Source of the DNA: Candidatus Poribacteria bacterium
GTDB lineage: Bacteria > Poribacteria > WGA-4E > WGA-3G
DNA: 64,000 bases
Reading direction: 5' to 3'
Assembly: GCA_965197475.1 (NCBI GenBank)
Contig: CBDANF010000003.1
Coordinates: forward strand, 448,001 to 512,000
Part shown: positions 50,092 through 55,042 of the stretch, piece by piece
Position numbering within the stretch: position 1 is the stretch's first letter
Layout: each line of letters begins with the position of its first letter
The notes under the pieces: model-generated
What the model saw: only the letters and a program-made list of their open reading frames with translations
Databases searched by the model: none
Told to the model about the DNA's origin: nothing
Position numbers and translations under genes: made by a program

Positions 50092-53019
50092 ATGAAAATA
50101 CGGAAAATTCTTATAACTGCAATCGTTTTCGCAAGCATCATTTCGATTCTTCCAATTTCTCATGCTTTTGAGTTTTCTTGGCAAATAGACGAAACACCTG
50201 AAGGTCAAGAGAGTGCAACTGCCGTCGAACCGATAGAAGTAACACTCTTAGATCAGCCTATACACGTGTCATCTCACAGTGCAGCAATTTTTTTAATGAA
50301 AAAGTATTCAGTTTACATAGATACAAACTGGAGCGGTTTAGACGCATACAAGCTGCTACAAACATTTGAATCGATACCACAACGAACGAATTGGAGATTT
50401 GCGAGACAAGATGTGTCTCCGTCGGTTTGGCAAATCAGTAATAGCCACATTCATAACGACATAGACATAGAACATAGAAGTGACACAAGAGTAGTCACAA
50501 TCGCATCTGATGCTTTTACCTATGCAAACCCCCTATTAGCAGAAATTGAAGGTGTCCGAGGCAGATTCTTTTCCAAACGGCTACATAATGCTGTCGTTCG
50601 GTTTGTAACCGATGACGGTAATAATAGAGATGTTATCAATAAAATACTGCGAGAACGTTATGATGTAAGCATTGATGTACCTGATTATGCAGAATTGACA
50701 AAATACACGACAGGTGAGAATCGCCACCGCTTCTCTGAATTCAAAAGCGAAGAATTATTGGTAATTCTTTCTATGCTTGAGGAATTTCCCCAAGGGATGC
50801 TTACTACACCAGGACTCAAATACCTTGTTCGCAGACTTGACGGCACGCCCAACCCCATATACCCAACAGCCCCTGCCATTGCATGGACAAGCGCAGGATA
50901 CATTGAATTCATGGAATCTGCTTTTAAAAATGCAGGCTATGACTATATGCACCGTCTGATTCTGCATGAAAAGGCACATTTTCTTTGGGAATACTTATTT
51001 GACGAACAACTCAAACAAGATTGGATTGAAATCGGCGGCTGGTATGAAAACCCCGACGACAAGGATGGATGGTCAACTACAAAGCAAGTTGAATTTGTAT
51101 CTGCTTATGCACACGGAATCAACCCGAACGAGGACATGGCAGAGAGTATTAGTTTTTACATTGTGAGACCTGACAAATTACGCTCACGTGCCCCCGCAAA
51201 ATACGAATTTATCCAAAATCGCATCATGCACGGCACACGATACATCTCACAAATTAGAGAGGATTTAACATTTGAAGTTTATAACTTATATCCTGACTAC
51301 GTCTATCCTGGAAGAATCATACGAATAGACATTCAAGTTGAAGGTGAACCCGAAGAAGATAAACTCGCAAAAATTGAAATAGAATTACACAAAGAAAGCG
51401 AATTAGACGCAGCGACAGTGGCATCTATCAGAATATTCAGTCCAAAAGGATCGTATACTGGGTTAAGACTGCGTCCAGTTGACGCACAAGGTAATAGGAT
51501 ACCTGCGGGACACATCTTACGAGGAAGTGTAGAAATTTCACGATATGCCCCTGACGGCTATTGGAATCCTGACCAAATCAATTTAACAGACGCAAACTCC
51601 AACAGTCGTTATAGTTCAAAAGTCGATTTCAATTGGATGATGTATATAAACAACCCGTTAGCTGATTGCGAACCCCCGAAATATGTGTCAAACACAATGC
51701 GATTGTCACTCTCACAACCCCAAAATACTGATGAAGGTGAATATCAGATAGTTACAGCAAGATGGCAAGCAACTGATAAAACAGACATAGACACATTAGC
51801 AGCACGGATAAACGACACATTTTTAGAAACATACTCACGCTTTTCATACGGCAAATTTGACCCTGAAACAAACACGGCAGAAGTCAATTTTAAGTTCCCA
51901 AACTACATGCCTGGCGGTGTATATAGTCTCAACTATATCACAATGAGAGACATAGCATTAAACTATTCTGCATACTATTTCACCGATCCAGAGATGGACG
52001 AAGCACCACAAACAATAGAGATACACACTACGAATCCCGACTTTGAGACACCCGAATTGGATATGAACAATATCACTATAGAAGCCACACCGACAAACCC
52101 TGAAGAACCGAATGGAGAAACTATAGTTGATATAACATTCTTTGCTAGAGATAATATTAGCGGTTACACCAAATCAGATATGCGTTTACGCGACCCGAAC
52201 GGCGTCATACATTTGTTCCGCCACTATCCTAAAGGACGAAGTGCTTTATATTTCCCTGGCGATCCGACTATATATAAAGAATACAACAAAACAATCGTAT
52301 TATCAGTCGGTAGCATTCCTGGAATTTGGGGACTTGCAGAAATGGTTCTCTATGACAAAGCAGGTAACACTCTCAAAGCCGATTTTACAGAGATCGTGCG
52401 GTTTGTCGTTGATGATACACCCGGTTCCGCTAACAAAACAGATGTCAACGGTGATGGCAAGGTCAACATTCTTGATCTGGTTTTTGTTGCGAATGCATTT
52501 GATGAATATGACGCGAAAGCGGATGTCAACGGAGATGGGGTGGTTAGCATACTGGATTTAGTATTAGTCGCAAGCTCCCTGGGAAATGACGAAATGGCAG
52601 CACCAAGTCTACACAAAAACGACCTTCAAAACTGGCTAACATTAGCACTTCAAAATGACAACGGAAGCTATAGGTATCGCCAAGGTCTAAACGTGTTACA
52701 ACGTCTGCTACTCACAGCACAACCCGAAAAAACAGCGCTGTTGCCAAACTATCCAAACCCATTCAATCCGGAGACGTGGATACCGTATCAATTAGCAGAA
52801 CCCGCAGATGTCACACTACACATTTATACTTCAGAAGGAAAGATTGTAAGAACATTTGAAATTGGACACAGACGGGCAGGTAAATATATCACAAAAAGTA
52901 GTGCCGCGTATTGGGATGGTAAAAACAGTTTTGGCGAAGTAGTTTCGACTGGTATATACTTCTATGAATTGCGAACCGATAACCAATCATTCACGAGAAA
53001 AATGATAATCGTCAAATAG
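50092..53019 (+). CDS. Secreted zinc-metallopeptidase-like protein with dockerin-like repeats and a C-terminal T9SS/FlgD-Ig-like sorting domain
   Basis: Signal peptide; LILHEKAH (HExxH) with NPNEDMAES; two DVNGDGxVxILDLV repeats; LLPNYPNPFNPETWIPYQL...TRKMIIVK. Confidence 0.82.
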   Translation: MKIRKILITAIVFASIISILPISHAFEFSWQIDETPEGQESATAVEPIEVTLLDQPIHVSSHSAAIFLMKKYSVYIDTNWSGLDAYKLLQTFESIPQRTNWRFARQDVSPSVWQISNSHIHNDIDIEHRSDTRVVTIASDAFTYANPLLAEIEGVRGRFFSKRLHNAVVRFVTDDGNNRDVINKILRERYDVSIDVPDYAELTKYTTGENRHRFSEFKSEELLVILSMLEEFPQGMLTTPGLKYLVRRLDGTPNPIYPTAPAIAWTSAGYIEFMESAFKNAGYDYMHRLILHEKAHFLWEYLFDEQLKQDWIEIGGWYENPDDKDGWSTTKQVEFVSAYAHGINPNEDMAESISFYIVRPDKLRSRAPAKYEFIQNRIMHGTRYISQIREDLTFEVYNLYPDYVYPGRIIRIDIQVEGEPEEDKLAKIEIELHKESELDAATVASIRIFSPKGSYTGLRLRPVDAQGNRIPAGHILRGSVEISRYAPDGYWNPDQINLTDANSNSRYSSKVDFNWMMYINNPLADCEPPKYVSNTMRLSLSQPQNTDEGEYQIVTARWQATDKTDIDTLAARINDTFLETYSRFSYGKFDPETNTAEVNFKFPNYMPGGVYSLNYITMRDIALNYSAYYFTDPEMDEAPQTIEIHTTNPDFETPELDMNNITIEATPTNPEEPNGETIVDITFFARDNISGYTKSDMRLRDPNGVIHLFRHYPKGRSALYFPGDPTIYKEYNKTIVLSVGSIPGIWGLAEMVLYDKAGNTLKADFTEIVRFVVDDTPGSANKTDVNGDGKVNILDLVFVANAFDEYDAKADVNGDGVVSILDLVLVASSLGNDEMAAPSLHKNDLQNWLTLALQNDNGSYRYRQGLNVLQRLLLTAQPEKTALLPNYPNPFNPETWIPYQLAEPADVTLHIYTSEGKIVRTFEIGHRRAGKYITKSSAAYWDGKNSFGEVVSTGIYFYELRTDNQSFTRKMIIVK

Positions 53020-53031
53020 TATCAAATGACC

Positions 53032-53144
53032 ATAGGATATCTGGAAGGTTGATGTTTATTGGCTTCCCAGCGATCATTAATGAGTGGGTTGCGTTGGGAT
53101 CGCGAGCATCCTCTTTGAGAAATGATGCGTTTAGCGATAAACGT
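53032..53144 (-). ncRNA. Candidate element-encoded structured RNA
   Basis: Four tiled hairpins (53128-53143, 53106-53128, 53070-53103, 53041-53070) directly downstream of a TTGACA-17-TATACT promoter. Confidence 0.45.
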
Positions 53145-53150
53145 GTCTAA

Positions 53151-53179
53151 AGTATAGCAAAACCAGTAGCGGTTGTCAA
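53151..53179 (-). promoter_or_regulatory. Near-consensus sigma70 promoter inside the element's 3' end
   Basis: Minus strand TTGACA (53179-53174), 17 bp, TATACT (53156-53151), with an extended -10 TG. Confidence 0.7.
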
Positions 53180-53246
53180 CCATATTTTCAAGGCACCTGC
53201 CCCGGTTTTGCGAAGTAAAGTTCGTCGGGAACATAGGATTAGGGTC

Positions 53247-54131
53247 TCATTGGGCTTCTCCTTGGTGAGTGGCTTCATCGTTTGAGTCTGAATTGGCAAG
53301 GTCTGCATCTATGGCTTGGAGTTGGTGCTGCGGTATGAGGTCGAGATATTGAGAGATGACGCGTTTAGAAAGTCGTGTAATCTGTGAGATTTTATCAATA
53401 TCTGCGGTTGCTTTCCGAACGACTTTGACGCTCTCATAATCGCGAATGTATCTATCAACTGCCTCCTTAGAGTGTTTGGTCTTTGCGGCAATCCTGGGGG
53501 TGAGATGTCCTTGAAGATAGAGGGTTATGATCTCTTTCTTATGGGTAATAGCCCCCGATAAGTCATGGATATTGCCACGGGTGGGCAAGAGTTCTCCAGT
53601 GGTTTTTTGCCATTCATTAACATAATCACAGACAACGGCATCGCAGACATTGAGCAAAACTGCCAAGTCGAGTTGGGTCAATAATGCCCCTTGGTCATAA
53701 GCTTGATGACACCAGCGGACCAAGCGATTGATCCGCAATTGCCGGGAGGTGAAACCGTTGCGAAAGGATTCAATATCCTCTGCGGCGAGGTAAGTCAGGA
53801 TGACGGGTTTCATGCGGGTTTTGACGATGGACTTTCCTCTTTCTGGATGCTCTTCAATAGGGACGGCCATCCAAACGAGTTGTCCATAACTCAAGAAACG
53901 CTCATCCGGGAGTTGATCGCCGGTGGCGAGTTTCTCCAAAGGAAGGGTAATCACGAAATAGTCTTCAACGGTCTTAAGAATATCATCAACAATGGCGGTG
54001 GCAGTGACTTCGCCTTTGTCATAACCATAGTCATTGAGAAAGCGGTGAATGAGCAACTGTCGTAGGGACTTATCGTTGATGCGTCTGAATTTCTTCTCGT
54101 TGATTTGCGTGCGGGTTAGAGGTTTGCTCAT
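53247..54131 (-). CDS. DUF1670 domain protein (copy B)
   Basis: QAYDQGALLTQLDLAVLL, LPTRGNIHDLS..THK, HSKEAVDRYIRDY motifs. Confidence 0.85.
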   Translation of the reverse strand: MSKPLTRTQINEKKFRRINDKSLRQLLIHRFLNDYGYDKGEVTATAIVDDILKTVEDYFVITLPLEKLATGDQLPDERFLSYGQLVWMAVPIEEHPERGKSIVKTRMKPVILTYLAAEDIESFRNGFTSRQLRINRLVRWCHQAYDQGALLTQLDLAVLLNVCDAVVCDYVNEWQKTTGELLPTRGNIHDLSGAITHKKEIITLYLQGHLTPRIAAKTKHSKEAVDRYIRDYESVKVVRKATADIDKISQITRLSKRVISQYLDLIPQHQLQAIDADLANSDSNDEATHQGEAQ

Positions 54132-54928
54132 GAGAGGTCCCCCTTTTTTGTGTCCTCAGGTTCTGGGTGAAGGAGTTGGGTTATGCGATCTGTGTGTTGG
54201 TATTCCTCATAGAGTGAGAGATACTCGCGGATCAACCGGTCAGATAGATGGGTGATCAGGCGTATCTGTGCGTTAGGAAAGCCTTGATGATGGAGCGTAG
54301 CGACTTGTGTAAAGTCTTTCAAGTAGCGGTAGACAGCTCGTTCGCTGTGGTTCGTCTTTTTCTCGATTTCGGTGAAGGTATAGGCTTTGAAATATAACTC
54401 CAGGACCTGGGTTTTATGAGAAGTGCCGGGGCCCATGTCGTGTTTCGTCCCGCGCGTCATAACGAAATACCCATCCTGCTTCAAGTGTCGAATGTCGCGT
54501 TTGACTGTAGCAGGACTGGTGGTTAATAATACAGCTAAATCCTCGTAGCTCAGTAAGGCATCTTGGTCATAAGCTTCTTGGGTCAATCGGAGGATCCGAT
54601 GCCGTATGAGTCCTGCGAGACCATAATTCGCTAAGACTTCAAGATCGGCGTTTGTGTCATTGAGAGTTAGCCGACAGGAAACTTTTTTCGCTAAAGCGAT
54701 ATGTTTACCTGCGGGTTCCTCTGCGGCGACTGCCTCGTAGCAGATTTGCCCTGATGTCAGGTGCACATCGGCGTGTTGTTCAAAGTAGGTGGAAATCTGT
54801 TTATAGTAGGCTTCAGCAACGAGAGGCATTAGATTAAAGTCTGCTGAAATCTTCTGAATAATAGCGGCTCTGGCATTCTTGGATTCGAGCCGAGTGATAC
54901 CGTAAGCGGTATCCTTCTTGCGGTTCAT
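54128..54928 (-). CDS. DUF1670 domain protein (copy A)
   Basis: EAYDQDALLSYEDLAVLL, TRGTKHDMGPGTSHK, HSERAVYRYLKDF motifs; ATG 54928 after GGAGG; ATGA overlap with copy B. Confidence 0.85.
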   Translation of the reverse strand: MNRKKDTAYGITRLESKNARAAIIQKISADFNLMPLVAEAYYKQISTYFEQHADVHLTSGQICYEAVAAEEPAGKHIALAKKVSCRLTLNDTNADLEVLANYGLAGLIRHRILRLTQEAYDQDALLSYEDLAVLLTTSPATVKRDIRHLKQDGYFVMTRGTKHDMGPGTSHKTQVLELYFKAYTFTEIEKKTNHSERAVYRYLKDFTQVATLHHQGFPNAQIRLITHLSDRLIREYLSLYEEYQHTDRITQLLHPEPEDTKKGDLS

Positions 54929-55042
54929 ATTGACCTCCATGAATAGATTATCGGGGATCCGAGGACATCTACTCGTTAGTTTAACGAATACTAATAGTAT
55001 AACTCATGGGGTCATTTGATACAAACTATAAGTAAATTTAAA

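Follow-up and report, generated by a model that had tools for sequence, protein, structure and literature searches.

The window analyzed here is a stretch of 64,000 nucleotides from a Candidatus Poribacteria bacterium (contig CBDANF010000003.1, positions 448,001 to 512,000), and the feature of interest within it is an insertion sequence of 2,016 bp (53014-55029) whose two genes lie on the minus strand and encode proteins of family DUF1670, called A and B below. Open reading frame (ORF) A (54128-54940, minus strand) specifies 270 amino acids as an ORF, and ORF B (53247-54131, minus strand) specifies 294. The true start of A is probably the ATG at 54928, which would give a protein of 266 residues, because GGAGG at 54933-54937 precedes this codon and close homologues have 265-266 residues; residues of A are numbered throughout in the 270-residue frame. 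The stop codon of A and the start codon of B overlap in the sequence ATGA. Both proteins match PF07900 (DUF1670; gathering cut-off 25), A with 207.3 bits (E 2.5e-61) and B with 208.3 bits (E 1.2e-61), and they are 34% identical over 192 columns. Judged by their sequences, A and B are paralogues encoded by overlapping genes. Among NCBIfam models nothing came near its cut-off with either protein, a faint match of B being to the helix-turn-helix (HTH) model of Cbp1, and phmmer searches of the whole proteins against the PDB found nothing below E 0.19.

On the plus strand the element reads AAATAG-TATCAAATGACC ... GGTCATTTGATAC-AAACTAT, with boundaries that are ambiguous by a shared AA. The AAATAG at 53014-53019 (plus strand), a lysine codon followed by a stop codon, is borne by the element and now terminates the host gene at 50092-53019. 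The 13-nt inverted-repeat arm at the end nearest B, GTATCAAATGACC (53019-53031), is 100% complementary to the arm at the other end, GGTCATTTGATAC (55010-55022), which is followed by AAACTAT, the two together occupying 55010-55029. When the genome was searched for this repeat with at most one mismatch, 41 matches were found, of which 40 are element ends (20 left and 20 right) and one is unrelated. Nineteen of each kind pair up, for about 19 copies: 16 measure 2,015-2,017 bp, two measure 2,023-2,024 bp, and one has been shortened by deletion to 1,784 bp. Across the genome, copies of the corresponding 2.15-kb stretch share 92-100% identity with it. Gene A is intact in 14 of the 19 paired copies and gene B in 17, and these are the only conserved genes of the element.

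The host gene in the window (50092-53019, plus strand) encodes 975 amino acids and ends in a type A sorting domain of the type IX secretion system (T9SS). Residues 887-973 match TIGR04183 with 33.6 bits (cut-off 23); FlgD_ig scores 30.2 bits, and Por_Secre_tail scores 24.8 bits, below its cut-off of 27. The native lysine and stop codons of this gene, AAGTAA, have been displaced to the far side of the element (55030-55035, plus strand). The same arrangement recurs elsewhere in the genome. Eighteen of 20 elements, all in one orientation, follow a coding sequence for ...(T/S)xRKMxIx and stand just before the final lysine and stop codons of T9SS sorting-domain genes. The side of the element that faces the host gene begins with AAATAG at 20 of 20 ends, and the first six bases of the far flank are again a lysine codon and a stop, AA(A/G)T(A/G)(A/G), in all 19 paired copies: AAGTAA in nine, AAGTAG in three, AAATAG in three, AAATAA in two and AAGTGA in two. 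This mixture resembles the ends of unoccupied sorting-domain genes, and the far-flank hexamer equals the AAATAG of the element in only three of the 19. Insertion takes place between the penultimate codon and the last lysine codon, always in one orientation, and since the element brings its own lysine and stop codons, the host protein is left unchanged.

Empty sites were found in four of the 11 loci examined in relatives, all four of them in relatives of the same genus. In these four the neighboring gene comes after an uninterrupted coding end with lysine and stop codons, beyond which the downstream flank of the window copy follows within one base, so that the empty site reads ...|AAGTAAATTT(T)AAA(A)TG...; at the other seven loci there is no such gene at that place. 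The dinucleotide AA stands on both sides of the element and once in the empty sites, and it is all that the element and the target have in common. The junctions read N-AA-ATAG...CTAT-AA-R, as would be expected both from a duplication of 2 bp and from a crossover of 2 bp at a nonpalindromic core. A homologous overlap of 6-8 bp is unlikely, because the two hexamers differ in 16 of the 19 copies and show no sign of conversion. An earlier description of the locus, the first-pass annotation, had spoken of inverted repeats without a target duplication. The 13-nt repeats are indeed perfect and no duplication exceeds 2 bp, so that much of the description is established; a 2-bp duplication at AA would also fit the junctions.

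The many near-identical copies that share the same ends at different places, together with the empty sites, establish that the element is mobile, and the DUF1670 pair is its entire gene cargo. The family extends well beyond this genome: 46 of 176 genomes of the phylum carry it, often in many copies, and identical ends are shared by 24 elements, which come from several genera. In a control search the PF07900 profile also found matches in Methanosarcina acetivorans, and a tblastn search with A against plasmids returned no match. The ends of the element and its target are established, and the target varies among lineages. Three sister elements from other genera of the phylum (L031, L032 and L043) have the same ends and are inserted in a small inverted-repeat hairpin, GAAACCGAGTTTT...AAAACTCGGTTTC, which is cut before AA. 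Short contigs from four sequencing runs include many joints that end at 53014, and one joint, from 52921 to 55030 with only 21 letters on one side, possibly represents an empty site.

Some loci depart from the common form. An internally deleted derivative at C3:94094-94563 has kept both ends and lost the genes, and joints from 53164 to 54995 in two runs likewise retain both ends without genes; these may be nonautonomous miniature copies. The copies at C3:845190 and C2:1160548 share a downstream flank and have different upstream flanks, one of which is not a sorting-domain gene. The pair may have arisen by a rearrangement or a duplication with the element at its boundary; an effect of the assembly, for which contamination is put at 6.97%, could also account for it.

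Structural models provide the framework for considering what A and B do. AlphaFold2 models built on family alignments are confident, with a predicted local distance difference test (pLDDT) score of 89.1 for A and 76.4 for B. Both consist of helices and a single two-stranded hairpin (residues 65-72 and 86-92 in A, 84-91 and 108-113 in B), with no sheet of three or more strands. N-terminal helices are followed by the hairpin, whose loop holds a conserved EPAGK in DUF1670 proteins, and then by a long helix, a winged helix, a short TRG..D.G linker and a final group of five or six helices. The winged helix of A scores above the gathering value for HTH_11 (28.7 versus 25). Downstream of the linker, the stretch that had been compared with box II of tyrosine recombinases resolves into three helices when DSSP is applied to the models (A 175-184, 189-196 and 200-218; B 197-206, 211-218 and 222-241), and this HTH is succeeded by two or three more helices in each protein.

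A search of 48,161 chains with VIA gave, in its best 50 rows, only matches of HTH type, with Z between 5.1 and 6.8. The LuxR-type HTH of DesR superposes on A 173-221 with Z 5.3 and a root-mean-square deviation (rmsd) of 1.7 over 49 aligned residues, and on B 195-243 with Z 6.3 and an rmsd of 1.6, again over 49. Sigma factor region 4 aligns with A 172-223 in one row (Z 5.3, rmsd 3.3, 51 aligned), and many region 4 chains match the B model. Matched in the B model only are the HTH of Tn3 resolvase (residues 193-236; Z 5.7, rmsd 1.9, 44 aligned) and a small-terminase HTH. The remaining matches of A include TrpR-like domains (200-259), Mu Mor/C, and the winged helices of NiaR, Z-alpha and BirA type (105-169); NiaR is matched also by the winged-helix module of B, at 128-190. 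Foldseek found nothing at E<=0.001 for either model, the weak rows of B including Tc3 and Pax paired domains.

Sequence profiles point in the same direction. The Pfam models HTH_28, HTH_23, HTH_29, HTH_7 and Terminase_5 align with A 175-212 and B 197-234, all below their gathering scores; on B, HTH_29, HTH_23 and HTH_28 fall on 197-234. Among sequences of solved structures, the best match to the stretch in A comes from 2lvs, a tandem-HTH chain titled CRISPR repeat binding protein, through both of its HTH repeats (E 0.0073), and the PTRG of the family profile aligns with the RG of a GntR-type winged-helix chain, 4r1h (E 0.021). In the models the box II-like strings are a third DNA-binding module, a three-helix HTH of the sigma-4, LuxR or resolvase type. 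The TRG motif comes just after the winged helix and is probably in its wing, as far as the models can place it. An architecture of successive HTH modules is established for this pair. Domains of the kinds just named serve as regulators or as the DNA-binding tails of enzymes; the DUF1670 proteins differ in consisting of an HTH chain alone, with a fixed set of histidine, histidine and tyrosine.

The first-pass annotation had proposed that DUF1670 may be a divergent enzyme of the tyrosine-recombinase kind, a reading that would assign box I to TRG and box II to a series of histidine, histidine and tyrosine. The features on which the proposal was based are real. The quoted strings, THKKEIITLYLQGHLTPRIAAKTKHSKEAVDRY in B (53448-53546, minus strand; residues 196-228) and SHKTQVLELYFKAYTFTEIEKKTNHSERAVYRY in A (54323-54421, minus strand; residues 174-206), are present, and so is the upstream TRG..HD motif, as TRGNIHD in B (53562-53582, minus strand), in a low-confidence linker after the winged helix, and as TRGTKHD in A (54437-54457, minus strand), also after the winged helix, in a block of residues 161-170 with pLDDT 74. 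The spacings in B are as claimed, 12 from glycine to histidine and 8 from histidine to tyrosine. The likeness carries little information, at least at the level of sequence patterns. A loose H-G-H-Y pattern with these spacings occurs in 25 of 3,945 ORFs of the genome, 18 of them DUF1670 copies and seven unrelated, and in eight shuffled ORFs too, whereas the canonical pattern HxxR...G...H/W...Y matches none of the DUF1670 ORFs of the genome.

Within the DUF1670 family the pattern is not accidental, and the conservation of these residues is a point in favor of membership in the integrase/Xer superfamily. The arginine, both histidines and the tyrosine are invariant or nearly so: R163 is invariant in 78 A-type sequences with a mean column identity of 34%, and D99, R118, Q126, D134, G164, G170, H175, H198, Y206 and Y240 are at least 90% conserved among them. 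In a mixed alignment of 80 A and B sequences, which leans on the A type, neither R185 nor H197 (B numbering) varies, and D119, R139, D155, D190, K198, H220 and Y228 are at least 90% conserved. Insertion that is site-specific, oriented and free of a long duplication also recalls XerC/XerD and other tyrosine recombinases, as do the possible pairing of related proteins and the arginine, histidine, histidine and tyrosine set itself.

Against such a relationship stand both the profiles and the geometry. PF00589 is not among the 15 Pfam families for A or the seven for B at E<=1, and a six-frame search of the whole 5.7-Mb genome found it at one place, C3:2069666, and not at the DUF1670 locus. When a profile of 78 DUF1670 sequences was aligned by hhalign with the integrase of the genome itself, the probability was 0.12% and only the N-terminus of A was aligned. 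HxxR at the start of box II is a tyrosine recombinase motif; here the first histidine is followed by KTQ in A or KKE in B, and the HxxR arginine is lacking. The proposed box I arginine lies only 12 residues before the first histidine and 43 before the tyrosine (R163 to Y206 in A, R185 to Y228 in B), a span set within HTH helices, whereas the integrase domain model of Pfam covers 172 positions. The stretch is modeled as five helices without a sheet, and no integrase is among the matches listed by Foldseek or the best 50 rows of VIA for either model, lists that are filled by HTH modules; nor is topoisomerase V among the best 50 VIA rows. Finally, tyrosine recombinases usually use an overlap of 6-8 bp, as against a crossover homology here of at most 2 bp.

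A purely tandem HTH fold with histidine, arginine and tyrosine residues that do not cluster had been named in advance as an outcome that would speak against a recombinase of this class, and the models agree with the first half of it, the tandem HTH fold. We conclude from sequences and models that the DUF1670 pair does not descend from tyrosine recombinases and, as far as the listed fold matches show, does not share their fold, and the lack of an integrase signature is established; that the proteins are nevertheless outlying members of the integrase superfamily seems to us scarcely credible. The core of the earlier interpretation thus fails, while its peripheral ideas survive.

One of the surviving ideas is that A and B act together, as is probable from their sequences and from a predicted complex. 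The ATGA overlap suggests translational coupling. Both genes were found at 25 loci, always in the order A-B, and 25 of 150 listed representatives are proteins of 500-950 amino acids with two or three DUF1670 modules. The predicted A+B complex scores 0.33, compared with 0.00 for the best of three controls; at least 63% of contacts are common to the runs, and the partner has a pLDDT of at least 67. Of 157 solved complexes, 116 attained this mark, as did 2 of 215 mismatched pairs; among those that attained it with a score of 0.60 or less were only 18 of the solved complexes, together with both of the mismatched pairs. The heterodimer that had been proposed therefore stands as a probable partnership and falls as a tyrosine recombinase. 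In the copy at C3:685909 (2,019 bp) the frames of A and B are joined into a single ORF of 564 amino acids, like the fusions of 500-550 amino acids in other lineages. Sponge metatranscriptome contigs from two runs cover parts of A and B, which is compatible with expression and does not prove it.

The question of how the element moves turns on which protein breaks and joins the DNA. We consider it probable that A and B together are the recombinase of the element, because elimination leads to them: the element has no other conserved gene. In the mechanism that we favor, the A+B assembly would itself break and join strands, by a chemistry not matched to any recognised class. Strand exchange would occur by a 2-bp exchange or with a 2-bp duplication at AA, and movement would probably proceed via a circular form, in which a conserved promoter facing the element end would drive A and B.

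Several observations weigh against this reading. No catalytic fold or motif of a known nuclease, transposase or recombinase was found in A or B. The scores of the fold matches are modest, all VIA values of Z being below 8, a range that the tool calls common for unrelated helical models. The fold searches were dominated by the HTH modules, so that the N-terminal 100 or so residues were barely probed, and a search of the ESM Atlas with residues 1-104 of A gave no usable match. The complex score of A+B passes weakly. The short contigs of the four sequencing runs show no circle junction. Lastly, 45 of the 46 genomes that carry DUF1670 also have genes for DDE_3 (PF13358), the IS630-type transposase domain, so that help in trans would be possible in most hosts.

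This last point bears directly on an alternative in which A and B only bind or choose the ends and the target, and a host enzyme or the transposase of another element cuts and joins in trans. Such a division of labor would suit two proteins that look like pure DNA binders. Of the 176 genomes of the phylum, 140 have DDE_3 genes, and the genome studied here has 40 matches; one IS630-type element (C3:112900 and other DDE_3 loci) has an end reading TA|TTATAGTAG..., in which TTATAGT is common to the left end of the DUF1670 element. Other facts are difficult to reconcile with borrowing. The genome G033, a single contig that is 95% complete, has eight DUF1670 matches and four copies with identical match scores, and it has no DDE_3. 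The IS630-type elements of the genome under study have other inverted repeats and are flanked by TA, not AA, and no other element carries the 13-nt repeat. DDE_3 is absent from A and B themselves, whose models contain no larger sheet. The serine recombinase domain PF00239 is absent from A and B and has no matches in this genome (G000) or in G148, both of which have many copies of the element, and PF00589 occurs in this genome at the single place already mentioned. Cutting and joining in trans is in our view decidedly unlikely, and a recombinase made of A and B is still preferred.

If A and B are the recombinase, it is necessary to ask where an active site might be. According to the models H175 of A and H197 of B cap the start of the first HTH helix, H198 and H220 just precede the recognition helix, and R205-Y206 and R227-Y228 lie within it. 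It is conceivable that these residues and others that face the DNA, an arginine, histidine, lysine, histidine, arginine and tyrosine on the wing and the HTH, form an active site that works through a covalent tyrosine (or serine) by convergent chemistry. These polar residues are fixed at an overall identity of 25-35%, also in lineages with other targets. In the 25 fused proteins the strict wing-motif pattern RG...D.G appears exactly once in each, as in pairs of an enzyme and a pseudo-enzyme, and on sequence grounds a single motif per fused protein would suit one active and one degenerate module; the pattern is strict and may miss degenerate or diverged copies, and A and B of the present element both keep it.

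In type II topoisomerases it is a winged-helix (5Y-CAP) domain that bears the catalytic tyrosine, and this is the one documented precedent for such a tyrosine on an HTH scaffold. According to a review (PMC7614492), the winged-helix domain of the topoisomerase includes an HTH fold and holds the catalytic tyrosine. The CAP domain of Topo VI-A is in fact matched by both models (B, Z 6.3, rmsd 2.3, 62 aligned; A, Z 5.5, rmsd 2.6, 61 aligned). These scores are tied, however, with those of many ordinary winged helices, and the match falls on the other module rather than on the helix that bears the arginine and tyrosine. In 2lvs, which binds DNA, the aligned HTH repeats also have a tyrosine at the corresponding place, and the conservation of tyrosine in DUF1670 may therefore be structural or reflect a backbone contact. 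On balance, a convergent active site of this kind appears rather unlikely.

A bolder form of the proposal, unlikely as well though we would give it slightly more room, is that DUF1670 is a sixth kind of transposase or recombinase, an HTH-only assembly that would cut and rejoin DNA at AA with the wing arginine, the two helix-cap histidines, the lysine and the arginine-tyrosine pair. Were it true, the chemistry of tyrosine recombinases would have been reinvented on a DNA-binding scaffold, as in the type II topoisomerases with their winged-helix tyrosine.

Between B and the end of the element nearest to it lies a 3′ noncoding region (53032-53246, minus strand), which is 0.55-0.77 identical to the window copy in the other elements, compared with 0.8-0.9 for the genes. 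It contains a sigma-70-like promoter, TTGACA, a 17-nt spacer and TG-n-TATACT, at 53151-53179 (minus strand), with 11 of 12 matches and directed toward the end of the element. TTG opens the -35 box in 23 of the 24 elements; all 24 retain the extended -10 with no more than one change, among them copies in which large parts of the region are deleted. In the simplest reading, which is an inference, transcription from this promoter would cross the joined ends of a circular or tandem form and so express A and B. It could instead make an RNA derived from the end, and retention of the promoter in all 24 elements despite the surrounding deletions may be taken to favor an RNA that guides or catalyzes insertion in the manner of a bridge RNA. 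The other data on this RNA are adverse. Rfam has no match to the element at E<=1; downstream of the promoter, RNAalifold finds three invariant pairs and -0.3 kcal/mol, folding of the single sequence gives z -1.44, and a stem drawn by hand has one compensatory pair with 74.6% of cells paired. Matches of 8-11 nt between the noncoding ends and the element's own target are about as numerous as our own estimate of chance, and no part of the element is less conserved than this region. A guide RNA is accordingly very improbable, and expression of A and B from a circular or tandem form is the more economical role for the promoter.

Comparison with known mobile systems shows partial likenesses in several directions. 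The IS630/Tc1-mariner elements have terminal inverted repeats, a fixed target dinucleotide on both sides and DNA binding by multiple HTH modules. The DUF1670 element is similar in its terminal repeats, in the dinucleotide on both sides and in the HTH_23, HTH_28 and HTH_29 matches to one and the same stretch; it differs in having AA instead of TA, in lacking DDE_3, and in its strict requirement for a long target and one orientation. Serine recombinases, including those of IS607, make a 2-bp crossover and have a C-terminal HTH. A 2-bp crossover would give exactly the junctions observed, and a nonpalindromic AA core would explain the single orientation. The differences here are the lack of PF00239 in A, in B and in the genome, and models in which no catalytic domain with a sheet appears.

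Elements of the IS110/IS1111 family insert in one orientation into specific sequences and make no duplication; they have a circle form with a promoter across the junction and use a DEDD transposase. The DUF1670 element resembles them in oriented and specific insertion and, if it moves as a circle, would do so in a promoter reading over the junction; it departs from them in having neither a DEDD transposase nor a supported structured RNA. Tn7 inserts at attTn7 by means of TnsD, downstream of a gene and with a 5-bp duplication, and needs TnsABC. Like the DUF1670 element, it recognizes a gene by its conserved 3′ coding end and does the gene no harm; the DUF1670 element is distinguished by inserting inside the last codon pair and replacing it.

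Full-text literature searches for DUF1670 and for PF07900 found no paper, nor did a search for insertion sequences at the ends of type IX secretion genes; searches on insertion sequences of Poribacteria and on HTH-only families of insertion sequences returned unrelated papers only, as judged by their listings. The element is undescribed in the literature searched. Insertion sequences are sorted by the chemistry of their transposases into DDE, DEDD, HUH, serine and tyrosine classes. The element described here is active and widespread, and its only two proteins fit none of them. Either a chain of HTH modules conceals a new activity that breaks and joins DNA, or a small element has come to borrow one. 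The targeting is itself unusual and potentially useful: insertion takes place at one exact phosphodiester, in one orientation, and the reading frame is repaired by the lysine and stop codons that the element carries. For annotation, the name biotin operon repressors that some sources give to DUF1670 proteins is misleading; pairs of these proteins should be labeled as parts of a mobile element and not as transcription factors.

Two minor features of the 3′ noncoding region may be added. An ORF of 70 amino acids at 53022-53234 was considered as a further gene and rejected, since it matches no Pfam family and coincides with the least conserved region of the element. A 20-nt direct repeat, 90% identical between its copies, links the noncoding region (53115-53134) with the C-terminal coding part of B (53349-53368), and by eye the noncoding copy resembles the 3′ end of the target genes.

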